The notes under the pieces: model-generated | What the model was told of the DNA's origin: nothing | The model's input: only the letters and a program-made list of their open reading frames with translations | Databases searched by the model: none | DNA from: Candidatus Omnitrophota bacterium | Lineage (GTDB): Bacteria; Omnitrophota; Gorgyraeia; Tantalellales; Tantalellaceae | Assembly (NCBI GenBank): GCA_049642015.1 | Contig: JBAROI010000054.1 | Coordinates: forward strand, 553 to 64,552 | Reading direction: 5' to 3' | DNA length: 64,000 nucleotides | Shown: positions 1,412 through 40,782 of the stretch, in pieces | How positions within the stretch are numbered: the stretch's first letter is position 1 | Layout: each line of letters begins with the position of its first letter | Program-made: the position numbers and the translations under genes

Positions 1412-2227
1412 ATGATCACTGAAAGTTTACCAAAACGGATAATCAAAACACCTGTGCTTGTGGAAACCGAGCAGTTTTTGGTCAAGCTGGCCGAAAACCA
1501 GGAAGAAGTCGAGAAGACCCTGCGTCTCCGCTACGAGGTCTTTAATATCGAGCAGGGAAGGGGACTTAAAACCGCTGAAGAACACTCGATCGACTCTGAC
1601 GAGTTTGATCATTACTGTTTGCATTTATTTGTGCTGGAAAAATGGTCCGGCCGGGTAATAGGGACATACCGCATCCATCTTGGCATGGTGGCAAAGTCCG
1701 CGAAGGGTTTTTATTCTTCGAGAGAGTACGAGATAAAGGGGCTCTATAAAATAGCGGACAAATGCATGGAATTAGGCAGGTCCTGTGTGACGCCGGAATT
1801 CCGCACCGGCAGCGTGATCGCCCTTCTCTGGAAAGCGATAACTGAACTTTTGGTCAGAACGGAACTTACTTTCATGCTTGGATGCGTTAGCCTTGAGGAA
1901 GAGGACCCTGTAACGGGATGGGCTTTATATGAGTATTTTCACAGGGCGAATTTATTGAGCGAGCATATCGCCGCTATTCCCCATCCTGAGTTTGAACTGG
2001 AGCGTCCGCCGGATCACGAGATAGAAAAGTTCTTATCGGACGAAAGAGCTCTTAAAAAATGCATTCCTCCGCTTTTCAAGGGTTACCTCCGGCTCGGCGG
2101 CCTTGTATGCGGACAGCCCGCGCTGGACAGTGAGTTCGGAACGATCGATTTTTTCATAATGGTCGATACTACCAGGATCCCGGAACGCTACGTCCGGCAT
2201 TTTAATTACATTAGGAACATTGGTTGA
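1412..2227 (+). CDS. olsB: GNAT-family N-acyltransferase, OlsB-like (ornithine/amino-acid lipid N-acyltransferase)
   Basis: LRLRYEVFNIEQG...DEFDHYCLHLFV...GTYRI pattern typical of hemolysin-like Acetyltransf_5; immediately followed (8-nt overlap) by PlsC-family acyltransferase. Confidence 0.6.
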   Translation: MITESLPKRIIKTPVLVETEQFLVKLAENQEEVEKTLRLRYEVFNIEQGRGLKTAEEHSIDSDEFDHYCLHLFVLEKWSGRVIGTYRIHLGMVAKSAKGFYSSREYEIKGLYKIADKCMELGRSCVTPEFRTGSVIALLWKAITELLVRTELTFMLGCVSLEEEDPVTGWALYEYFHRANLLSEHIAAIPHPEFELERPPDHEIEKFLSDERALKKCIPPLFKGYLRLGGLVCGQPALDSEFGTIDFFIMVDTTRIPERYVRHFNYIRNIG

Positions 2228-3014
2228 TATCATGGCGTTTTTTCTTCGTTTATACCGGATCACGGCGCTTGCCGTATGGCTTCTGTTCATCATCCTTTTA
2301 ACCATACCGTACCAATTCAGAGGCTGGAACGGGGTTAAAAAGATAAACCGCCTCGTCCATTTACTGATGACGGGCGCCGCAAAGATCATTAATCTGCGTG
2401 TTAAATTGTCAGGCGAAGTTCCCGATGCGTCCGCGGGTTTGGTTGTTTCAAACCATCTTAGTTATCTGGATATAATCGCCCACGGCTCGGTTTTTCCCAT
2501 TCGTTATTCCCCAAAATCAGAGATCGCAAAATGGCCGATCCTTGGATGGGTTACCGCTTTAAGTCATCCGATATGGATCAAAAGAAAAATGAAACAAGCG
2601 TCCAAAGAGACCTTGAAAGATTTCGCGGAAACCGCCAAACATGGAATAAACCTTTTAGTTTACCCGGAGGGAACAAGTTCTGACGGAAAGAGCGGTGTTC
2701 TTCCGTTCAAGTCCACTCTTTTTGAAGCCGCCGTTGCGGAAGACCTGCCGGTCATTCCCGTACTGACGCGCTATCGTGAGGCTCCCGGAAGAACTACCGT
2801 ATGCTGGTACGGCGACATGACCCTGCTTCCTCATCTCTGGCAGGTGCTGGGCTTTCCTTCCATAGAATCGGAACTTCATCTTCTTCCACCTGTTTTTCCG
2901 GAAGGAAGGTCAAGAAAGGAAATGGCTTCCCACGTGCATGAACTTCTCAGCCGTGAATATAATAAGATTATCGGTGTGGACGCAAAATGGCAAACATCAG
3001 AAAGCATGTTTTGA
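2220..3014 (+). CDS. olsA: lysophospholipid acyltransferase (PlsC family), OlsA-like
   Basis: N-terminal TM, VVSNHLSYLDII (HX4D-type motif) and YPEGTSS motif; operonic with OlsB-like gene. Confidence 0.65.
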   Translation: MVDIMAFFLRLYRITALAVWLLFIILLTIPYQFRGWNGVKKINRLVHLLMTGAAKIINLRVKLSGEVPDASAGLVVSNHLSYLDIIAHGSVFPIRYSPKSEIAKWPILGWVTALSHPIWIKRKMKQASKETLKDFAETAKHGINLLVYPEGTSSDGKSGVLPFKSTLFEAAVAEDLPVIPVLTRYREAPGRTTVCWYGDMTLLPHLWQVLGFPSIESELHLLPPVFPEGRSRKEMASHVHELLSREYNKIIGVDAKWQTSESMF

Positions 3015-3265
3015 TAAGCGGGATGGTCCAGGGAGTGTTTTTTCGCTCCGACACGAGGGAGATGGCGCGCAGCCTCGGGATGACGGGTTGGGTCAGGAAC
3101 TGCTGGGACGGAAGAGTGGAAGCCGTCTTTGAAGGAGAGGAATCCATGGTTGACCACGCGGTCGAATGGTGCCGTAAGGGACCTCCTTCAGCTCATGTAA
3201 ATAAAATTGATGTTACTACCGAAAAATATACCGGTCAATTCGATACTTTTGATATAACGTACTAA
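2987..3265 (+). CDS. acyP: acylphosphatase
   Basis: GMVQGVFFRSDTR...GWVRNCWDGRVEAVFEGE signature of acylphosphatase fold. Confidence 0.8.
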   Translation: MANIRKHVLISGMVQGVFFRSDTREMARSLGMTGWVRNCWDGRVEAVFEGEESMVDHAVEWCRKGPPSAHVNKIDVTTEKYTGQFDTFDITY

Positions 3266-3278
3266 AGGGGGGTGTGAG

Positions 3279-3587
3279 ATGTTGGCAGAGATAAGCATTA
3301 TACCTGTTGGCGAAGGCGTTTCGATCAGCAGTCATGTGGCCAGAATGGCGAACATCATCGACGAAAGCGGCCTGGATTACAAGATCAATCCGATGGCTAC
3401 GGTCATAGAAGGCGATTTCGATGAGGTCATGCGCCTTGTAAAGAAATGCCACGAGACTATTATGGAAGAGGCAGAAAGGGTCATCATCAATGTGGTCATA
3501 GACGACCGCAGGGATAAGACGGCCCCGCGCCTGGATAAGAAGCTGGAGTCGGTGGAACAGAAGGCCGGAAAGACCTTGAAGAAGTAG
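3279..3587 (+). CDS. MTH1187/YkoF-family (DUF77) protein
   Basis: ~100 aa; AEISIIPVG...INPMATVIEG...VVIDDRRDK matches thiamine-binding YkoF/MTH1187 family. Confidence 0.7.
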   Translation: MLAEISIIPVGEGVSISSHVARMANIIDESGLDYKINPMATVIEGDFDEVMRLVKKCHETIMEEAERVIINVVIDDRRDKTAPRLDKKLESVEQKAGKTLKK

Positions 3588-3612
3588 GCGCGTTCAGGCC
3601 AAAAGACCGAAT

Positions 3613-4356
3613 ATGAGAAACCTCACAAGAACCGGAACGAATATCAATTCAAAAATAGGTAAGGCGATAGGCGATTACGGCCTCATCGAAGACGGCGACA
3701 AAATACTGGTCGCCGTTTCCGGCGGGAAGGATAGCCTCACTCTCCTGACGCTCCTTAAGGAGATCCAGAGATGGGCGCCGGTAAAGTTTGAACTTTTCGC
3801 GGCGCACATAATGACGGACTTTCGCTGCGGCGGCTGTGTGCATGAAAATAGTCTCTCCGGCATATTCAAGGAAATGAGTGTCGAATATGTTTTCAGGGAC
3901 ATCAAGGTGCTTGATGAAGAAGGCAAGACCACGTGTTTCTGGTGTTCCTGGAACAGGCGCAAAGCGCTTTTTGAGATCGCGGCCGAACTCGGCTGTAATA
4001 AAGTAGCCCTGGGACATCACAAAGACGACATCGTTGAGACCGTTCTTATGAACCTTCTTTATAAGGGCGAGATATCTACCATGAATCCCTGTCAGGAGAT
4101 GTTCGACGGCAAGATCGTCATCATCAGGCCTCTTTGTTACGTGGAAGAGAAGACGATAAAGAAATTCGCGAAAGAAAGCAAATTCCCTGAACAACTATGC
4201 AAGTGTCCCTTCGGAAAAGATTCAAAAAGACGGTACGTGAAAAAATTCATCAGGGAGACGGAAAAAAGCACACCGCGCCTCAATGTCAAAACAAATATTT
4301 TTAAAAGCATTGCCAGGATCAAAGAAGATTACATTAATGTGAAAGAGGAAAAATGA
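3613..4356 (+). CDS. ttcA: tRNA 2-thiocytidine(32) synthetase TtcA (PP-loop ATPase)
   Basis: SGGKDS PP-loop motif, paired CxxC motifs (CGGC, CKCPFGK). Confidence 0.8.
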   Translation: MRNLTRTGTNINSKIGKAIGDYGLIEDGDKILVAVSGGKDSLTLLTLLKEIQRWAPVKFELFAAHIMTDFRCGGCVHENSLSGIFKEMSVEYVFRDIKVLDEEGKTTCFWCSWNRRKALFEIAAELGCNKVALGHHKDDIVETVLMNLLYKGEISTMNPCQEMFDGKIVIIRPLCYVEEKTIKKFAKESKFPEQLCKCPFGKDSKRRYVKKFIRETEKSTPRLNVKTNIFKSIARIKEDYINVKEEK

Positions 4357-5180
4357 AAAAGGTTTTTGTTCTCGCAATAATTTTTTTCCATCTGGTTGGC
4401 ACTGTTTTTTGCCAGCCGGAAGACATGGAAGTTAAGATCTTTAAAATAAAAAACAGACGCGCAGAATCCTTGCTGCCTGTAGTTGAGCACATGAAAAGCG
4501 GCGAAGGCAAGGTAACGGTTGACTCCAACACGGACAGCCTGATAGTCGTCGATTATCCGCAGAACCTGACAAGGATGGCGGAAGTCCTCAAAACTTTGGA
4601 TGTTCCCGAGAAGCAGGTTGAAATAAAGGTCCTTGTCGCGGAAATCACGGATGCCTTTTTGGGGCAGGCGGGCCTGAGCTTTGGACAATCGGTCATGACG
4701 CCGGAAAGGTTTGACCGGATGCGGTACCTGCTTGAAAAGAGTGAAAACTCAAACGTACGTTCAGAAATGACAGTTCTGACGATGAGCGGACAGCCCGCGA
4801 CCATAAAAGTCGCCCAGGAGGAGATATTATGGGGGGCGGTGGTAAGCGTGCCCGAGAGTAAAACAATAACGGTCGCGCCTGTCGCGAAAAGAAGCGCCGG
4901 GAAATTCCTGGAAGTCTTGCCCAGAGTGAACAACGACGGCTCTATTACCGTTACCTTGAGGCCGGAAGTAAGCGAGTTCCAAAAGGACCGCAGTATATAT
5001 GAGAGGTCCATTATAACCCAGGTTAACGTTGGAAACGGTGATACAATAGCGATAGGCGGCCTTGAGGCGGAAAAAAAATATACCGAGCAGACTGGGATCC
5101 CACTTACCGGGACAAGGGTTCATGCGGGGATGAAGGAAAGAAGAAAAATAATAATGTTCCTTACTGCAACCGAAAAATAA
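4353..5180 (+). CDS. minimal secretin-family outer-membrane protein (signal peptide + one secretin-N domain + secretin domain)
   Basis: Signal peptide; secretin-N-like domain (LIVVDYPQNLTRMAEVLKTLDV); C-terminus GDTIAIGGL...GIPLTG...RRKIIMFLTATEK matches secretin C-terminal consensus; ATGA overlap with ttcA stop. Confidence 0.55.
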   Translation: MKKVFVLAIIFFHLVGTVFCQPEDMEVKIFKIKNRRAESLLPVVEHMKSGEGKVTVDSNTDSLIVVDYPQNLTRMAEVLKTLDVPEKQVEIKVLVAEITDAFLGQAGLSFGQSVMTPERFDRMRYLLEKSENSNVRSEMTVLTMSGQPATIKVAQEEILWGAVVSVPESKTITVAPVAKRSAGKFLEVLPRVNNDGSITVTLRPEVSEFQKDRSIYERSIITQVNVGNGDTIAIGGLEAEKKYTEQTGIPLTGTRVHAGMKERRKIIMFLTATEK

Positions 5181-5312
5181 TCCGATTTTCTTGCAAAACG
5201 GATAGATTGCATATATCATTTACATTAATAGGGATATGGAAATTATAACAATAGTTAATTTTAATAGGACAAAAAGGCAATTGTCAAGATAAGCGCAAGA
5301 AGAGGAGAAGCG

Positions 5313-5666
5313 ATGGATAGCTCAATTTGTCAGGTAGAATCACAGGGCGAGGTTACGGTGCTGTCCATGAACCTGGATGACGTTGACGTTCACCAGGAGA
5401 GGGTCCTGATGAGGGATTTCTTCAAACTCGTGGACGAGGGCAGCAAGAACATAGTCATAGACCTTTCCCGGACAAGCCACATCGCTTCGGTCGGGATAGC
5501 CGTTTTAATATTCATGCTTAAAAGGACGAAAAAGAAAGATTGCAACCTTGCGATCTGCGGCGCCAGCGAAAAGATAAAGAACGTTTTGAAGACAACGAAC
5601 GTCGACACCTTGTTTGAAGTGTACGATGACAGGGAAAAAGCCATAAGCCGGCTTACTTCCGCATAG
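5313..5666 (+). CDS. STAS-domain protein (anti-sigma-factor antagonist-like)
   Basis: SpoIIAA-like layout: VLSMNLDDVDV...IVIDLSRTSHIASVGIAVL...VYDDREKA. Confidence 0.65.
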   Translation: MDSSICQVESQGEVTVLSMNLDDVDVHQERVLMRDFFKLVDEGSKNIVIDLSRTSHIASVGIAVLIFMLKRTKKKDCNLAICGASEKIKNVLKTTNVDTLFEVYDDREKAISRLTSA

Positions 5667-10839: not shown

Positions 10840-10871
10840 AATTTGATTCACCTAACAGGAAGAAAAATCTC

Positions 10872-10899
10872 CCTACTGCACTTGACACTTCCGATTTAC
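10872..10899 (+). promoter_or_regulatory. sigma70-like promoter TTGACA-16-TATACT (extended TGaTATACT)
   Basis: ttgaca at 10872-10877, tatact at 10894-10899; ~265 nt upstream of the outer-membrane protein gene (long 5' UTR). Confidence 0.4.
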
Positions 10900-11165
10900 A
10901 TGATATACTTTCTGAAAATATGGTACTCTTGGCATATTTTGCGCAGGGGTAGATATGTTCTTTTACTTATAATTTTTAGGATGTACAGCCGAGGCAGTTT
11001 CAATTCCGGCAAAGAAAGGGGGGAGGAAATGCATATACAAAAATCCTGCCAGGAACTGTCAATATTGAAGGCGATACTAATATAGAAAAACCAAAAAAGT
11101 AAGCAATTCGCTTGCTTGTTTTAATATTTGTTTAGCTTAAAAAATTACCTTTATAAGGAGGTAAA

Positions 11166-12608
11166 ATGAAGTTATTGAAAGTTTTTTGCGTTCTGGTGCT
11201 TGTGTTCGCGGTATCCGCGATCGCACATGCCGAAACGCAGAGCGTAAAAGTGAGCGGTGATATCACCCAGCGCGCTTTTGCGAGAGGTGATTATGACCTG
11301 GATGAAGGGGATCCGGAAGCCGCAAACGGCACCGAATCCAACGACTGGTCAACTTACCTGTTGAGCACGGTCGAAGTTCAGGTTGATGCTGACCTTACCG
11401 ACAACGTATCCGGTGTTATCAGACTCATCAACCAGAGGGTATGGGGCGATGGTCTGTACCAGAGCAACCCCGCCGGCGGCGAACTGAGAGAGATCAGCCA
11501 GAACGGCGCAGTTGGTGTCAAGGCTGTTGCTCCCGGTTCAGCAGACGCGTTTGAGGTTGGGGTCGACCTGGCCTATATCGAACTGAAAGAGTTCCTATAC
11601 TCTCCTCTTACACTGAGGATAGGTCGTCAGGACCTTTGGTTCGGTAAGGGCTTCATCATTGGCGCGAACCTGAACGATATCGCGGGAAGCATTTTCCCGA
11701 CAGAGTACACTGCGGTCTCTTCATTTGACGCAGTCCGTGCGACGTTGGACTATGATCCCTGGACCATTGACGCTGTTTACGCGAAGATAAGCGAAAACGC
11801 CAGAAGGTCCGATGACGATATCAACCTCTGGGGCGTAAACGTCGGCTACGTTTTCGACGCTTACAACGCAGAAGCTGAAGCTTATTGGTGGTTCAAGGAT
11901 GCCAGGAACCCGGGTGCGGGTGTTGGTAACTCCCTGAACAGCATCGATGGCAAATGCTCCAATGACGTTCACGTTATGGGTGGTCGCGGCAGCTTCGATC
12001 CGATCGAAGACTGGACGATCGCTGTAGAAGGTGCTTATCAGCTCGGCCGTTACATGGTGGCTTCTCAGGTGGATAGAAGAGAAAGAAGCGCCTGGGCGCT
12101 CGACGCGATGATCGAATGCCGCTACTGGCAGGATGATTTCGCGTGGAGACCCGTAATGGGCGTAGAATACGTCTTCTACTCCGGCAACGAGAACATGGGC
12201 AATCAGTTAGCTACGACCAGCGGCGACTGGAAGGGCTGGGACCCGATGTACAGAGGCAAGTTTGACACTGCCATCAGAGAGTTCCAGAACTCGTTTTATG
12301 CCACCGCGATGGCCAGCAGCCCGTCCTACACGAACCAGCATCAGCTGCTCGTTACTGGTGTTGTTGAGCCGACAGACAGCCTTACTTTCAAAGCGAAGTA
12401 CGGCCACTTCTGGCTCGCTGAGGACTGGTCAAGCACCAACACTGACAAGAATGTCGGTGACGAAGTCGATCTACTCCTGACATGGGATTACACCGAGGAC
12501 GTTCAGTTCAGTCTTCTGACTGCATGGTTCTTCCCGGGCGATCACTTCGACGGTGGACAGGATTCAGCAGCTACCGACATAGTCGGTTCTGTAAAGCTCA
12601 GCTTCTAA
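11166..12608 (+). CDS. outer-membrane beta-barrel protein (putative porin)
   Basis: Cleavable signal peptide (AIAHA/ET), alternating amphipathic strands, C-terminal ...SVKLSF (terminal Phe), strong SD AAGGAGG, followed by intrinsic terminator. Confidence 0.55.
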   Translation: MKLLKVFCVLVLVFAVSAIAHAETQSVKVSGDITQRAFARGDYDLDEGDPEAANGTESNDWSTYLLSTVEVQVDADLTDNVSGVIRLINQRVWGDGLYQSNPAGGELREISQNGAVGVKAVAPGSADAFEVGVDLAYIELKEFLYSPLTLRIGRQDLWFGKGFIIGANLNDIAGSIFPTEYTAVSSFDAVRATLDYDPWTIDAVYAKISENARRSDDDINLWGVNVGYVFDAYNAEAEAYWWFKDARNPGAGVGNSLNSIDGKCSNDVHVMGGRGSFDPIEDWTIAVEGAYQLGRYMVASQVDRRERSAWALDAMIECRYWQDDFAWRPVMGVEYVFYSGNENMGNQLATTSGDWKGWDPMYRGKFDTAIREFQNSFYATAMASSPSYTNQHQLLVTGVVEPTDSLTFKAKYGHFWLAEDWSSTNTDKNVGDEVDLLLTWDYTEDVQFSLLTAWFFPGDHFDGGQDSAATDIVGSVKLSF

Positions 12609-12630
12609 GTTAAATACATCTAGCTTAACA

Positions 12631-12668
12631 AAGCCCCGGCTCGCAAAACGAGCCGGGGCTTTTTTTAT
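12631..12668 (+). terminator. rho-independent terminator
   Basis: gccccggctcg-caaaa-cgagccggggc stem-loop followed by T7 run. Confidence 0.8.
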
Positions 12669-12840
12669 ACCTGTCTAGAAGTATGTCATCCCGGGCGACT
12701 TCTGCGAAGCCCTTACTAGTTGACAGGCAAGCTGAAGGGCGAAGCAGAGGAGACCCGGGATCACATAAAAGTTTTATTTGATCCCGGATATTCGCCTTCG
12801 GCGAATTCCGGGATGACATATATTCACTTCGGTGAACCGG
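12669..12840 (+). repeat. structured inverted-repeat region (13-bp perfect IR tatgtcatcccgg/ccgggatgacata with inner UUCG-type hairpins)
   Basis: IR arms at 12682-12694 and 12808-12820; inner hairpins cggatattcgcc-ttcg-gcgaattccg and tcac-ttcg-gtga. Confidence 0.5.
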
Positions 12841-12925
12841 GATTTTTCTATGCGCTATACGCTAGTTATATATTGACTTTTGGGATTTAAACATTAGAAT
12901 ATATAATCAAAACAACATATCACAC

Positions 12926-13936
12926 GTGAAATTTTCAAAAAACTTTATTATAACAATTTCTATTATTATCTTCGTAGCGCTGGCGCTGGCGGGTTTTATG
13001 ATATGGAAGGCGAAAAGGCCGCCGCTGAAAGTCGGGCGCGAAGTAATCCGAGATTTCTCGTTTCCCGATGCTAAAAGCTTGAATGAATGGGAAGATAAGC
13101 TTTTGGCCCGCAGCCGCACTGATTACAGCGTGGCCGAAGAGGCGGGCAAGAGCTGCGTCAAGGCCCAAAGCGAAGATTCGGCATCAGCCCTTTTTTACCA
13201 GCGCAACCTTTTTTTCTTAAAGAGGCCCTTTGTAAGCTGGGACTGGAAGGTGGCGAAATTCCCGGAACGGCAGCAGCAAGAGAACCTTGATAAGAAAGAA
13301 GAGTTTGATTTCGGCGCTCAATTTTACGTTATATTCGCATCCAGGTTCTTTCTTAATACAAAGGCCATCCAGTATGTCTGGACCGAAAAGATGCCGGCGG
13401 GGACGGTCAGTAATAGCCCGTATACAAAAAATGTTAAGATCATGGTCCTTGAATCCGGGCCTTCTGAAGAGTGGAAACACGAAGAGCGGAACATAGAAGA
13501 GGATTTTAGAAATCTTTTTGGCAAGGAACTCAATAAGAACGTGGCCGCGGTAGCGCTTATGTCGGATTCTGACAGCACCGGGACCAGCGCTTTAGCTTAT
13601 TTCAGCAATATTGTACTCGGCTATCTTGGAGTGGATTTGAGCAGGCGAAAGCGCTATGTAAAGAAAAAGCTTGTGCGGTCAAAGCGCTTCCCGTTTAGAA
13701 AGATAGAAGTTGAAGTAGCAGAAGAAGTGGAACCGGCAAAGAAAGTAGAGCCGGTAAAAGAAGTGGTGCCGGCAGAGGAAGTAGAGCCGGTAAAGGAAGT
13801 GGAGCCGGTAGAAGAAATAGCACCCGCAGAAGAAGCAGAACCGATAAAGGAAGAAAAGCCAATAGAAGAAGCAGAACCAGCAAAGGAATTGGAGCCAACA
13901 AAGGAATTGGAGCCAACAAAGGAGGAAAGCCATTAA
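12926..13936 (+). CDS. DUF3047-like protein (paralog 2) with C-terminal E/P/K-rich tandem repeat tail
   Basis: N-terminal TM; core similar to ORF 674..1408; C-terminal (EPxKEx) repeats. Confidence 0.45.
   Translation: MKFSKNFIITISIIIFVALALAGFMIWKAKRPPLKVGREVIRDFSFPDAKSLNEWEDKLLARSRTDYSVAEEAGKSCVKAQSEDSASALFYQRNLFFLKRPFVSWDWKVAKFPERQQQENLDKKEEFDFGAQFYVIFASRFFLNTKAIQYVWTEKMPAGTVSNSPYTKNVKIMVLESGPSEEWKHEERNIEEDFRNLFGKELNKNVAAVALMSDSDSTGTSALAYFSNIVLGYLGVDLSRRKRYVKKKLVRSKRFPFRKIEVEVAEEVEPAKKVEPVKEVVPAEEVEPVKEVEPVEEIAPAEEAEPIKEEKPIEEAEPAKELEPTKELEPTKEESH
13705..13930 (+). repeat. tandem coding repeats (~24-30 nt units, gaagtRgagccggtaaaggaa-like)
   Basis: Direct repeats visible in DNA; encode VEPVKEVEPVEE... 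tail. Confidence 0.6.
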
Positions 13937-13967
13937 GTACTTTAATAGAACCCTACAGACACACAAT

Positions 13968-14342
13968 TTGTTTATCATTGTTCTTTCAATGATCATTCCC
14001 ACGGCGTTTGTCGGCGGCTGCCTCTATTATTTTATTTTTACCGTCATGGCTAAACAGCTTGCGCTGCCCGATGTGATAGCGCTGAACCTCCTGCCGGTAA
14101 TTCACAAGATCAACTACCTGCTCCTTTTGGGGCTTCCGGTCCTTTTTGTTGTGATGCTGGGATGGGCCGTTTTTTTGTCGTACAGGTTCATAGCGCCGCT
14201 GGAACGCCTCGAGGTGGACCTCGAAAAGATCGACAAAGGCGATTATTCCGCACGGCTGCAGATCAATAAAGACCACGATCTGAGCCCGATCGCGGACGTG
14301 ATCAACGATCTTGTCGATAAACTGGAAAGGCAAAAAGGGTAA
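13968..14342 (+). CDS. two-TM protein with stand-alone HAMP domain
   Basis: Two TM helices followed by IAPLERLEVDLEKIDKGDYSARLQI...IADVINDLVDKL (HAMP-like amphipathic helices); no output domain. Confidence 0.45.
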   Translation: MFIIVLSMIIPTAFVGGCLYYFIFTVMAKQLALPDVIALNLLPVIHKINYLLLLGLPVLFVVMLGWAVFLSYRFIAPLERLEVDLEKIDKGDYSARLQINKDHDLSPIADVINDLVDKLERQKG

Positions 14343-14349
14343 ACAGGCG

Positions 14350-15141
14350 ATGGGGATACACCAGACAGCTATCGTGGCAAAAAATACCGAGATCGATGAT
14401 TCCGTGGAGATCGGGCCTAATGTCATAATAGAAGAAAAAGTAAGGATCGATCCTGGCGTTAGGATAATGGCCAACGCGTATATCCACAAAAATACGGAAA
14501 TAGGCGAAGGCACCGTCATCCACCCCGGGGCCGTCATAGGGGGCGAGCCGCAGGATTATTCGTACAAGGGCGGGGAGACTTTCACCAGGATCGGGAAGAA
14601 TAACATCATACGGGAATATGTCACCATTCACCGCGGCACCGAGGAGGGTTCGGCGACCGTGGTCGGTGACAATAATTTCCTGATGGTCCAATCCCACCTC
14701 GGCCATAATTGCAGAATAGAAAATGAAGTGACCATCGCCAACGGGGCGCTTTTGGCGGGACACGTTGAGGTTGAAAAGGGCGCCTTTATATCCGGCAATG
14801 TTGTCTTTCACCAGTTCTGCCGGGTGGGTCGCTACGCGATGATAGGGGGATTCACCGGGGTGAACAAGGATGTCCCGCCGTACATGCTGGTCAGGGGGCC
14901 TTCCGTTATAAGGGGTATCAACCTCGTGGGGCTCCGGCGCGCGGGGTTCAGCAGAGAAGTGATAAAAGAAATAAAAGAGGCGTATAGACTGCTGTTTACC
15001 GCGGGAAGAACGACCCGTGAGGCGGCCGAGAAGATCAGGGAGAACTTGAAGTCCGGCGAGATAGAGCATCTTGTCTCGTTTGTCGAAGCTTCTAAAAGGG
15101 GTATATGCAAGCTTAGGTATAGCAAGGAAGAATATTTTTAA
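14350..15141 (+). CDS. lpxA: acyl-ACP--UDP-N-acetylglucosamine O-acyltransferase
   Basis: Left-handed hexapeptide repeats; IHQTAIVAKNTEIDDSVEIGPN...IGKNNIIREYVTIHRGT aligns with E. coli LpxA N-terminus; start set at MGIHQ (14350) rather than track 14311. Confidence 0.85.
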   Translation: MGIHQTAIVAKNTEIDDSVEIGPNVIIEEKVRIDPGVRIMANAYIHKNTEIGEGTVIHPGAVIGGEPQDYSYKGGETFTRIGKNNIIREYVTIHRGTEEGSATVVGDNNFLMVQSHLGHNCRIENEVTIANGALLAGHVEVEKGAFISGNVVFHQFCRVGRYAMIGGFTGVNKDVPPYMLVRGPSVIRGINLVGLRRAGFSREVIKEIKEAYRLLFTAGRTTREAAEKIRENLKSGEIEHLVSFVEASKRGICKLRYSKEEYF

Positions 15142-26079: not shown

Positions 26080-26400
26080 ATGGAAAGAGTGGTGAGGGCC
26101 GGAAGGCCGAAGAAAAAGAGGGTTGTCCACAGGAAACCCGAAAGTTTTAAATTCAGTCCCAGGGGAAAACGCGGCAAGCCTGACAGCGTTCTCCTGACGC
26201 TGGAAGAATTCGAGGCGATACGCCTGGCGGATTGCCAGTCGAAAAAACATTCCGATGCTGCTGATTCGATGAACATATCCCGTCAGACGTTTGAGAGGAT
26301 ACTTAAGTCCGCCCGCAAGACCGTATCAGACGCTATCGTTAACGGGAAAGCGATAAAAATATGGGGTGGGGCGTATGATTTCGGGAACATGGAATTATAA
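26080..26400 (+). CDS. DUF134 (UPF0251) putative DNA-binding protein
   Basis: GRPKKKR...FKP.G...LTLEEFEAIRLAD...ISRQTFERILKSARKTVSDAIVNG matches DUF134 consensus. Confidence 0.7.
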   Translation: MERVVRAGRPKKKRVVHRKPESFKFSPRGKRGKPDSVLLTLEEFEAIRLADCQSKKHSDAADSMNISRQTFERILKSARKTVSDAIVNGKAIKIWGGAYDFGNMEL

Positions 26401-26410
26401 AGGAGGGACC

Positions 26411-27097
26411 ATGCTGAAAAGATCGTTGATCGTTGTAGTGTTTCTTAGTTTAGTACTCTTGAACGTGGGAGATGCGCTGGCGGTAAGTGCATCCAAGCTT
26501 GACCTGAGAATAAAAGAAGCGCGCGAGGTTTTGGAAGAGATGCAGGAAATGCCGGACCAATCCATACCTAAAGACCTGATAGAAAATTGCGCGGGCATTG
26601 CTATATTTCCTTCGGTCATAAAGGGCGGTTTTATTATAGGCGGACAGTACGGACAAGGCGTGCTGCTGAACAAGGACAAAAAGACGGGCAAATGGAGCCC
26701 TCCGGTTTTTGTTTCGATAGGCGGCGCGAGTTTTGGTTTTCAAATAGGCGGACGCGCGTCGGACATGATCCTCGTTATCGGCGGCAGAAGAAGTGTTGAA
26801 AGCCTTTCGCACAGCAACGTGACCCTGGGAGGGGACGCTTCAGTGGCTGCGGGTCCGGTCGGCAGGGACGCGTCCGTTGATACCGACGTGCTCTTGAAGG
26901 CGGGGATACTTTCATACTCCAGGAGCAGGGGCTTGTTTGCCGGGATCAGTCTTAAAGGCGCCATTGTAGGGCCAATGAAAAATCTTAATGAAAAATATTA
27001 CGGAAAAGGCACTACCGCTGACGACATACTTTTTTCAGGCAAAGTAAAGCCGACTAAAGCGGGACGGGAGCTTATAGGCTTTTTGAATAAGTATTAA
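26411..27097 (+). CDS. SYLF (Ysc84/DUF500) lipid-binding domain protein with signal peptide
   Basis: YSRSRGLFAGISLKGAIVG and GGDASVAAGPVGRDAS motifs of SYLF domain; start at MLKRS after AAGGAGGG SD. Confidence 0.7.
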   Translation: MLKRSLIVVVFLSLVLLNVGDALAVSASKLDLRIKEAREVLEEMQEMPDQSIPKDLIENCAGIAIFPSVIKGGFIIGGQYGQGVLLNKDKKTGKWSPPVFVSIGGASFGFQIGGRASDMILVIGGRRSVESLSHSNVTLGGDASVAAGPVGRDASVDTDVLLKAGILSYSRSRGLFAGISLKGAIVGPMKNLNEKYYGKGTTADDILFSGKVKPTKAGRELIGFLNKY

Positions 27098-39705: not shown

Positions 39706-39738
39706 TTGCACAAAAAGAAGCGCGAAGCGGGAGTATAC

Positions 39739-40782
39739 ATGAGAGTAATATCCGTTGCCAACCAGAAGGGGGGCTGTGGAAAAACAACCCTGGCCACGAA
39801 CATAGCGGCGTCCTTTTCAGGCCTGGGAAATGAAACCCTACTGATCGACCTGGATCCCCAGGCGCACGCCACGTTCGCCATGGGTTATTGCAAGAAATCG
39901 TCCGACCGCAGGACGTCGTACGATATTTTCCGGGCCCATTTTGAAGGCTCGCCCATACCGTTTGACCAGATCGTCGCGACTGATAGAAGCAAGCTATCGT
40001 TTATATCCGCGAATATGATGCTCAGCGCGGCCGAGATCAATCTCGGGAGCGTGAACGGAGCGGCGGCCATATTGTCCCGCACTCTGTCCGATCCTTTTTT
40101 TGAAAAATACGAATACATCATTATTGACTCACCCCCCAGCTTCGGCTTTTTAACGCTTAATTCCATGTATGCCGCGGATGTGATCCTGGTCCCCATGGAC
40201 CTGGGCTACTTTTCTCTGAACAGCGTTGACAGTGTGCACCGGGTGACGGGCCTGTTGAATTCCGAAACAGGGAGGAACCCTTCGGTATTTTTTGTCCTGA
40301 ACCTTTTTGACAAGCGTTCAAGGTTCGCAAAAAGATTCGAGAACGACGCGATCAAGAAGCTTGGGCCTTATCTTCTTTCCACCAGGATCCACTCAAGCGT
40401 GAGGCTGAGAGAGGCCGCCGAAACCGGCAAGACGATATTCGAACATGATCCCGAATCCACGTCAGCGCTTGATTTTTGCAACCTGACCAAGGAGCTTTTG
40501 ACCATTGAGGATGAGGACATAAATACCAGCATAAAGCAATTCTTTATCCACGCCCCGCAGGCCAGCCACGTGTACGTGCTTGGGGACTTTAACGGATGGC
40601 AGAAATCGCAAGCCAGCCGTCTTTCCCGGCTGGAGGACGGCAGCTGGTCGGCCCACATTATGCTGGATCGAGGAAGATACCGTTACAAGTACCTCATAGA
40701 CGATCAATGGATCCACGATTCTAAAAACCCCCAGAAAGAGACTAATCCGTTTGGCAGCATTGACTCAGTTCTGACAGTTTAA
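39739..40782 (+). CDS. ParA/MinD-family ATPase fused to C-terminal CBM48 (AMPK-beta glycogen-binding) domain
   Basis: Deviant Walker A VANQKGGCGKTT, ParA core; C-terminal HVYVLGDFNGWQ...YRYKYLIDDQWIHDSKNP matches AMPK1_CBM/CBM48; start chosen at MRVISVANQ (39739). Confidence 0.75.
   Translation: MRVISVANQKGGCGKTTLATNIAASFSGLGNETLLIDLDPQAHATFAMGYCKKSSDRRTSYDIFRAHFEGSPIPFDQIVATDRSKLSFISANMMLSAAEINLGSVNGAAAILSRTLSDPFFEKYEYIIIDSPPSFGFLTLNSMYAADVILVPMDLGYFSLNSVDSVHRVTGLLNSETGRNPSVFFVLNLFDKRSRFAKRFENDAIKKLGPYLLSTRIHSSVRLREAAETGKTIFEHDPESTSALDFCNLTKELLTIEDEDINTSIKQFFIHAPQASHVYVLGDFNGWQKSQASRLSRLEDGSWSAHIMLDRGRYRYKYLIDDQWIHDSKNPQKETNPFGSIDSVLTV

Follow-up and report, generated by a model that had tools for sequence, protein, structure and literature searches.

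Four major bacterial nanomachines and the filamentous phages share one kind of outer-membrane portal, the secretin, and a family of secretins cut down to little more than the ring-building and gating core is carried mostly by Candidatus Omnitrophota genomes, with no secretion or pilus machine encoded beside the gene at the loci sampled. The member described here lies in a 64,000-nucleotide stretch of a Candidatus Omnitrophota bacterium (assembly GCA_049642015.1, contig JBAROI010000054.1, positions 553 to 64,552 of the forward strand; this whole stretch is referred to as the window), at positions 4353..5180. Sequence comparison indicates that this gene, hereafter the short secretin gene, encodes a functional ‘core-only’ secretin kept by selection, with a mature protein of ~255 residues in which four elements of characterised secretins are absent: the N0 domain, the N1/N2 spacers, the beta-lip hairpin and the S-domain. 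The parts of the protein map onto the gene as follows.

4353..5180, + strand: short secretin gene, 275 amino acids (aa) from an ATG start, stop codon included (list of open reading frames (ORFs) and translation)
4353..4412, + strand: predicted Sec signal peptide, aa 1-20, MKKVFVLAIIFFHLVGTVFC, with QPED next (inspection, and a helix at aa 2-18 in an AlphaFold2 (AF2) model)
4431..4616, + strand: single N3-like ring-building domain, aa 27-88 (Pfam PF03958; alignments to characterised N3 domains)
4617..4700, + strand: outer-barrel strand 1 (aa 89-99, with the acid E97) and a conserved hydrophobic turn (aa 100-116) (AF2 model)
4701..5177, + strand: secretin core, aa 117-275, with a helix, the gated inner barrel and the final long hairpin (PF00263; PDB profile alignment)
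4812..4901, + strand: Gate 1 equivalent, aa 154-183 (mapped onto G267 and G297 of pIV)
5097..5123, + strand: degenerate remnant of the amphipathic helical loop (AHL), aa 249-257, IPLTGTRVH (alignments to GspD, KVPLLGDIPLIGNLF, and pIV, GVPFLSKIPLIGLLF)

An earlier note on this DNA, made from the letters and their translations, had described a 275-aa ORF at these positions with a signal peptide, a single secretin-N-type domain and a complete secretin C-domain, and had proposed a Pfam check for both domains; all but the completeness of the C-domain is sustained. Both Pfam models are matched above their cut-offs, Secretin_N (PF03958) at aa 27-88 with 42.9 bits against 28.2, and Secretin (PF00263) at aa 127-251 with 69 bits against 27.5, covering profile positions 2-136 of 169; the Secretin domain is also carried by all homologs recovered in two word-indexed searches (53 and 94). 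Residues 27-88 align to the N3 domains of GspD, XcpQ, ExeD and pIV, running on into the first barrel strand, and in a PDB profile search GspD and PilQ were matched at E = 1e-31 to 1e-25, with residues 107-273 aligned to GspD 406-584. The AF2 model, built with the family alignment as input (pLDDT 79.5, pTM 0.63), has the fold of a double-walled beta-barrel subunit, and its structural matches are secretins only, with Foldseek in agreement. The signal peptide, read by inspection, consists of MKK and a 16-residue hydrophobic stretch, with V18 at -3 and C20 at -1, and its n-region/h-region pattern recurs across the family. Taken by sequence and predicted fold, this is a genuine secretin-family protein with one N-domain, which agrees with the superfamily in sequence and fold, departs from it in three traits common to all characterised members (an N0 domain, a beta-lip and a linked machine) and is equivocal in two more, the AHL and the Gate-1 hinges.

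The gating apparatus is recognisable in part when landmarks of pIV (PMC8563730) are carried over to the short secretin through the family profile. Gate 1 keeps its length (29 residues, against 30 in pIV), and of the two glycines of pIV with hinge roles in this gate (PMC8563730) the second has its counterpart in G183, a glycine in 129/129 members, while the first (position 154) is S, T or A in 120/129 (S47/T42/A31) and Ala in the window protein; the loop itself is poorly defined in the AF2 model, at pLDDT 59-61. Gate 2 is ~5 residues shorter than that of pIV. The barrel-wall salt bridge of pIV (E185-R337) has counterparts in E97, where E or D is found in 127/129 members, and R218.

The N3-like domain begins 6 residues past the signal peptide, leaving no space for N0, N1 or N2. 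The N0 domain docks secretins to GspC, PilP or pI. No match to STN/PF07660, the Pfam model of N0, was found in the window protein, and the nearest secretins outside the family do carry PF07660; N0 is reported at the N-terminus of all characterised secretins (PMC8563730). At the other end the S-domain is absent, the protein stopping at the last barrel strand (KIIMFLTATEK), with C-terminal tails of 0-8 aa in family members. The beta-lip hairpin is missing as well: its position holds ~11-17 residues in the short secretin, occupied by the turn at aa 100-116 with the family consensus FLxxIGLxxGQVIIP; AF2 models the preceding strand at 88-99, then a helix at 100-106 and a strand at 113-115. Relative to the short secretin, pIV has a surplus of ~25 residues at this site, XcpQ ~40, K-12 GspD ~48 and the GspD of enterotoxigenic Escherichia coli ~64, and a surplus of at least ~20 residues, most often 27-31, is present in all of the 80-plus longer secretins retrieved and in 0/129 family members. 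Beta-lips of 36 residues are reported for phage secretins, 51-60 for those of type II secretion systems (T2SS) and ~80 where a cap gate is present (PMC8563730), so that, as aligned, the lip site of the family falls below the smallest known lip class.

The AHL is cut to ~9 residues, with the family consensus VPLFGIPLS and without the canonical C-terminal LGxLF of a signature (VPxLGDIPxLGxLF) reported to be essential for membrane insertion (PMC8134430). Its alignment columns are occupied in 63-122 of 129 members, some of which delete the loop outright, and AF2 confidence falls to pLDDT <50 at aa 238-260, the AHL region. The C-domain motifs quoted in the earlier note (GDTIAIGGL and KIIMFLTATEK) are thus present, and its description of that domain as complete does not stand, given the missing beta-lip and the shortened AHL. 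What remains would be the assembly and gate core minus the portions believed to extend across the membrane. Liposecretins, such as HxcQ and BfpB, are lipoprotein secretins that pilot themselves, and identity with these was considered and rejected: a Cys is found near the cleavage site in 42/129 members and a classical lipobox in just 3/129, the window protein having none of classical form, with F at -1 of Cys20.

Full-length members of the family number 129, with lengths of 249-317 aa (median 275), and each aligns end to end as one domain. The family was recovered alike by word-indexed searches with the single protein and with the family alignment, and a third time when 1.84 billion cluster representatives were searched exhaustively with HMMER. 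On the family profile, members score at least 180 bits and the best single-domain score of longer secretins is 75 bits; in the named database the gap runs from at least 200 bits to at most 135, and secretins beneath it mostly carry an N0/STN domain. By these profile scores the family is sharply bounded. G107 is found in 128/129 members, and P190, P204 and T271 are invariant in a 38-sequence alignment. Against a 76%-identical ortholog, nonsynonymous and synonymous differences per site (pN 0.14, pS 0.72) give a dN/dS of ~0.06, a ratio that is approximate, dS being saturated, and clear in direction, which points to maintenance by selection. The earlier note had allowed that a truncated pseudogene of a longer ortholog would undo its reading; with the narrow length range, the end-to-end alignment and this ratio, that objection falls away, and a pseudogene or fragment is rejected.

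Named members are almost all from Candidatus Omnitrophota, and one family locus (L011) lies on a closed chromosome (CP070807.1). Typical members also occur in 5 metagenome-assembled genomes (L013, L014, L017, L018 and L020) titled uncultured Planctomycetales or Planctomycetia bacterium; either the family reaches Planctomycetota, or these third-party labels place Omnitrophota genomes imprecisely. A sister subclade of 307-317 aa, with a C-terminal tail of 38-44 aa, includes a protein labelled Verrucomicrobiota. Its loci (L025:10001-10933, L030:10001-10924 and L031:10001-10954) share an order of their own, with a MiaB/RimO-like radical-SAM gene divergent upstream, a 135-136 aa GGACT-domain gene after the secretin, NUDIX and LysM genes beyond on the opposite strand, and no machine genes.

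The short secretin falls outside all curated functional subfamilies tested, as judged by its NCBIfam scores: 96.9 bits against a cut-off of 351 for GspD (TIGR02517), 85.3 against 284 for PilQ (TIGR02515), 53 against 238 for SctC (TIGR02516), 45.3 against 250 for MshL (TIGR02519), 47 against 554 for HofQ and 19.2 against 288 for the PilN-type IVB secretins. Because these scores lie far under every curated cut-off, the database labels ‘GspD’ and ‘PilQ’ are not justified for such proteins and overstate what is known of them; NCBI holds an identical protein under the title ‘secretin N-terminal domain-containing protein [Candidatus Omnitrophota bacterium]’. In the open-access literature no account was found of Omnitrophota secretins of this kind, nor of an orphan, minimal, short or truncated-secretin family that matches; within that scope the family is undescribed, the negative counting as absence of evidence only.

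Among the closest analogues are the T2SS secretins GspD, PulD and XcpQ (PDB 5WQ7, 5W68, 5WLN), in particular the engineered PulD construct 28-42/259-660, relative to which the short secretin is without N0, N1, N2, beta-lip, S-domain and the LGxLF of the AHL, has its first Gate-1 hinge glycine replaced, and has no pilotin or gsp genes nearby. The pIV protein of phage f1 (PDB 7OFH), 25-26% identical to the short secretin, is, with 405 aa in its mature form, the smallest of the characterised secretins, so that the earlier note's remark that 275 aa is far below the length of known secretins is borne out; pIV has N0 and a linker (residues 1-107), neither of which the short secretin possesses, and keeps a full AHL (IPLIGLLF) and a 36-residue lip, where the short secretin has ~25 fewer residues, and it is phage-borne, whereas the context of the short secretin is not phage-like. 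PilQ of the type IVa pilus (PDB 6W6M, 6VE2, 3JC8) has AMIN and N0 domains and is encoded in pilMNOPQ operons, none of which applies here. The only naturally minimal secretin described is the mitochondrial GspD of some protists (eukaryotic mitochondrial T2SS, miT2SS; PMC8134430, Horvathova et al. 2021), which lacks N3, supplied by separate GspDN polypeptides, retains a highly conserved AHL and co-occurs with GspE, GspF and GspG homologs; in contrast, N3 is present in the bacterial short secretin, whose AHL is shortened and near which no Gsp genes are linked. The Tad secretin RcpA/CpaC (PDB 8ODN), a much weaker match (Foldseek E = 7e-6) that is absent from the PDB sequence-search matches, is encoded in tad operons together with the pilotin TadD, and the Tad loci of Omnitrophota are reported to have an RcpA of their own. 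The architecture of the short secretin would surprise a secretin specialist.

The same search returned secretins at the opposite extreme, of 3,000-5,500 aa (P0054, P0131, P0102 and ~70 others; L024:29-11197, L049:1-5403), each combining 19-37 matched stretches of Secretin_N type with a single secretin domain at the C-terminus; one such ORF continues past the end of a contig labelled uncultured Planctomycetaceae and has at least 3,722 aa. Because giants and the smallest secretins arise in one search, the size range of the superfamily extends far beyond the textbook 400-700 aa.

The immediate surroundings of the short secretin gene are as follows.

3613..4356, + strand: TtcA-like PP-loop gene, directly upstream, its stop overlapping the secretin start (ATGA, 4353-4356)
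5181..5312, no strand: AT-rich spacer of 132 nucleotides, 3' of the short secretin gene (sequence)
5313..5666, + strand: STAS-domain protein of the anti-sigma-factor-antagonist type, downstream of the secretin (Pfam STAS 52.7 bits; NCBIfam TIGR00377 55.2 bits)

The short secretin gene is the final gene of a dense co-directional run (2220..5180), and its ATG (4353-4355) overlaps the TGA (4354-4356) of the 247-aa PP-loop gene as ATGA, in the manner that the earlier note had read from the sequence. The upstream product carries the PP-loop domain (Pfam ATP_bind_3, PF01171, 76.4 bits) and scores 208 bits against NCBIfam TtcA (NF007972), under the equivalog cut-off of 272, with a match that spans model positions 16-254 of 295, being shorter than that model; ‘TtcA-like PP-loop ATPase’ would be a safer name than ttcA, which is kept below as shorthand. 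Within the spacer, promoter-like hexamers occur on the + strand at 5191-5219 and 5219-5246 (consensus matches only), and no terminator-like hairpin was found there. The STAS gene is a neighbour of the short secretin with no demonstrated link to it.

No T2SS, type IV pilus (T4P), type III secretion system (T3SS) or Tad genes lie within 10 kb of the short secretin, as the earlier note had stated, the sizeable ORFs between 1 and 17 kb carrying unrelated Pfam families or none. Families matched within 10 kb are DUF456, two DUF3047, GNAT-type and PlsC-type acyltransferases, acylphosphatase, a thiamine-binding-protein-family protein, STAS, PsbP-like, aspartyl protease, peptidase U32, a chagasin-type inhibitor, PHP, an alginate-export-like porin, HAMP and LpxA. 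Neither a second secretin nor a prepilin-type N-terminus was found in the window, and phmmer with Escherichia coli GspC, GspE-M and GspO gave no match in its 64 kb. With probes from E. coli K-12, GspC, GspE, GspF, GspG-K, GspL, GspM and GspO likewise found no match, and GspD alone did, in 593,109 bases from 50 sources that comprise the window, 27 earlier loci and 19 metagenome-scan loci; this set covers the ATPase, platform, pseudopilins and prepilin peptidase of T2SS/T4P type, with no Tad- or T3SS-specific probe, although ATPases of the TadA/CpaF type would probably be caught by GspE. The observation extends to ~45 family loci, where no T2SS, T3SS, T4P, Tad or inovirus genes were seen within 8-10 kb (less on short contigs), no pilins were found near members by prepilin motif, and no pilM, pilN, pilO, pilP or pilin genes stand near them. 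Because machine genes are missing around ~45 loci, orphan status is a property of the whole family and reaches beyond the locus in the window.

Translational coupling to ttcA, which the earlier note had pointed out, did not prove to be a meaningful trait. An ortholog of 90% identity (P0002) retains the overlap, and in the 76%-identical ortholog (P0003) a 93-aa ORF without known family overlaps the secretin start in its place; elsewhere LemA, Ysc84, Fe-ADH, GGDEF and other genes replace ttcA, and the ORFs directly upstream of family members are mutually unrelated. In genomes as compact as these, unrelated genes often overlap by four bases at start and stop, and the ttcA coupling is, as far as these comparisons go, local and without functional weight; a functional ttcA operon is accordingly rejected, the linkage being gone at 76% identity and the upstream genes differing from locus to locus. 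A hidden conserved partner is rejected on similar grounds. All-against-all BLAST of neighbours up to 5 genes on either side at 23 loci gave clusters only within closely related loci that share gene order; in a batch Pfam scan of 123 neighbours the listed 25 most frequent families included none from T2SS, T4P or Tad, and the upstream-ORF comparison was negative as well. Recurring Nitroreductase and GGDEF matches among the 123 came mainly from one three-locus group.

Several observations attach to these neighbourhoods in their own right. With the MiaB-like gene beside the Verrucomicrobiota-type subclade and ttcA in the window, a tRNA-sulfur enzyme gene stands twice beside a short secretin, probably by coincidence. 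A Ysc84-domain gene (Las17-binding / EipA-like envelope protein) is found at window 26366-27097, and in another Omnitrophota genome (L006:9312-10004) the stop of a Ysc84 gene overlaps the short-secretin start. Signalling genes (STAS, a STAS-PilZ fusion, PilZ, GGDEF) occur within a few genes of members in several lineages (window 5313-5666; L001:6759-7478 and 11899-12279; L002:10843-11181; L007:9237-10013 and 10859-14755; L028:3104-3457), and in the 76% ortholog a STAS gene lies two genes downstream of the secretin. This recurrence may reflect the mere commonness of such genes in Omnitrophota; PilZ is found in 2/123 neighbours and the GGDEF matches come from the three-locus group, so that signalling neighbours are not general. 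Regulation by cyclic di-GMP or partner switching is not upheld, STAS, PilZ and GGDEF genes being neighbours at some loci only.

The role tentatively favoured for the short secretin is that of an outer-membrane gated ring that serves type IV filament machinery in trans. Subunits would self-assemble into a 12-15-mer gated ring by analogy with the engineered PulD construct of N3 and C-domain, and ring formation is to be expected because the short secretin matches this assembly-competent core: PulD 28-42/259-660 (N3, C and S) forms multimers and inserts into membranes unaided, deletion of N0-N2 leaves assembly in vivo unaffected (PMC4604470), and N3 is reported to be necessary for pore assembly (PMC8134430). 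The ring may sit against, or shallowly within, the outer membrane on its periplasmic side, with the hydrophobic turn and the AHL remnant as the likely contacts that hold it there, and would act as portal or gate in trans for type IVa or Tad pili, or for T2SS-like machinery encoded elsewhere in the genome. With no docking domain, no linked genes and housekeeping neighbourhoods that shift between loci, the protein is unlikely to belong to an operon-encoded machine; the absence of any neighbour conserved across loci, and of GspC, GspE-M and GspO homologs in the 593 kb, fits a partner in trans. Type-4a pilus genes are reported in 135/141 Velamenicoccia genomes and most other Omnitrophota classes, and TadBC/RcpA genes in 74/116 Velamenicoccia species (PMC10066038), and with such pili reported as near-universal and Tad as frequent in the phylum, an in-trans portal is the most economical reading.

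Several points weigh against this assignment. N0 is the part that contacts GspC, PilP or pI in characterised secretins, and its absence opposes coupling of the canonical kind. The beta-lip and full AHL are regarded as membrane-inserting (for the AHL, PMC8134430), and the ring may therefore not span the outer membrane. Tad systems in Omnitrophota are reported with their own RcpA (PMC10066038) and need no extra secretin, and the AF2 model is of a monomer, with pLDDT 59-61 in the gate loop and <50 at the AHL tip. The two alternatives raised in the earlier note, an orphan channel of a distant system and an unusual function, are not separated by these results. A rival reading would be an autonomous gated pore, a regulated large-bore outer-membrane channel without an inner-membrane machine, passing macromolecules (DNA, peptides, host-derived nutrients) into or out of ultra-small host-dependent bacteria and taking no part in pilus or T2SS export. 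This is a doubtful but serious possibility: the gene is an orphan at every locus sampled, the lost parts (N0, N1/N2, S-domain) are exactly those that couple a secretin to its machine or pilotin, gate and assembly core are kept, and truncated PulD assembles and inserts partner-free (PMC4604470). Nearby STAS, PilZ and GGDEF genes in several loci could fit regulated opening, although their patchy occurrence (the GGDEF matches from one group, PilZ in 2/123) speaks against this, and unaided membrane crossing is doubtful with the lip and half of the AHL gone. To our knowledge, every known secretin opens through a substrate or piston supplied by an inner-membrane machine.

The absence of the lip and the shortening of the AHL, family-wide and set beside a retained N3 and barrel core, would also suit a periplasmic or accessory ring that stops short of spanning the outer membrane and acts as an extra gate, spacer or plug, stacked beneath or co-assembled with another pore or a full-length secretin. 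Truncated PulD joins the full-length protein in mixed multimers (PMC4604470), making such hetero-assembly physically possible; however, no partner gene is linked, and the FLxxIGL..VIIP turn and VPLFGIPLS remnant look like retained membrane contacts. This role is judged unlikely, and we know of no precedent for it among characterised secretins. Far less probable is a pIV-type export secretin of a prophage-borne filamentous phage (inovirus), despite tblastn matches of 25-26% identity to gene IV of Ff phage (E ~1e-11): neighbours are housekeeping genes that differ among loci, with no phage genes, pIV has N0 and a 36-residue lip that the family does not, a viral structure library yielded just two significant matches, both to longer pIV-like proteins, and conservation in the family is vertical and phylum-restricted. 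The inovirus prophage reading is largely refuted. Hardly any credence is left for a decaying relic of a longer secretin, or a gene tied to tRNA thiolation through the ttcA overlap; a length under half of the usual secretin, the start codon overlapping the ttcA stop and the MiaB-like tRNA-modification gene beside the Verrucomicrobiota-type subclade would suggest as much, but length is constant in 129 members at 30%-90% identity with signal peptides and C-termini intact, dN/dS is ~0.06, and the ttcA linkage is lost at 76% identity amid unrelated upstream genes and commonplace four-base overlaps. A small part of the probability is kept for functions not thought of.

Beyond the secretin, the window holds two DUF3047 paralogs (674-1408 and 12926-13936), each with an N-terminal membrane anchor, the second ending in a C-terminal tail of ~90 residues of acidic Pro/Glu/Val repeats (EEVEPVKEVEPVEE). 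A 480-aa signal-peptide protein of the alginate-export (AlgE-like) beta-barrel porin family (75 bits) is encoded at 11166-12608, 6 kb downstream of the secretin, with no alginate biosynthesis genes nearby, and at 39706-40782 a ParA/MinD-type P-loop ATPase (AAA_31/CbiA) bears a C-terminal glycogen-binding module (AMPK1_CBM/CBM48), an unusual pairing. Farther from the secretin the window holds housekeeping genes, among them genes for methionine biosynthesis and an AddA-like helicase, and the beginning of the dcw cell-wall/division cluster (MraW and an FtsI-type penicillin-binding protein). Coding-strand bias is extreme, with nearly all credible genes on the + strand and many adjacent genes sharing 4-base start/stop overlaps; no tRNA genes and no Rfam matches at gathering score were found in the 64 kb.

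A natural family without N0 and beta-lip, and never encoded with a machine, would define the minimum sequence for building and gating a secretin ring, which has so far been approached only through engineered PulD fragments, and it raises the questions of how a lip-less ring engages the membrane and what opens it. Were the short secretin to act as an autonomous pore, it would be the first secretin known to work as a channel on its own, and no smaller natural unit would be able to build a secretin pore; a subunit of ~255 residues would also make a small scaffold attractive to structural biologists and nanopore engineers. For the organisms themselves, the family bears on how pili and macromolecules pass the outer membrane of Omnitrophota, uncultivated nanobacteria suspected of predation or parasitism.

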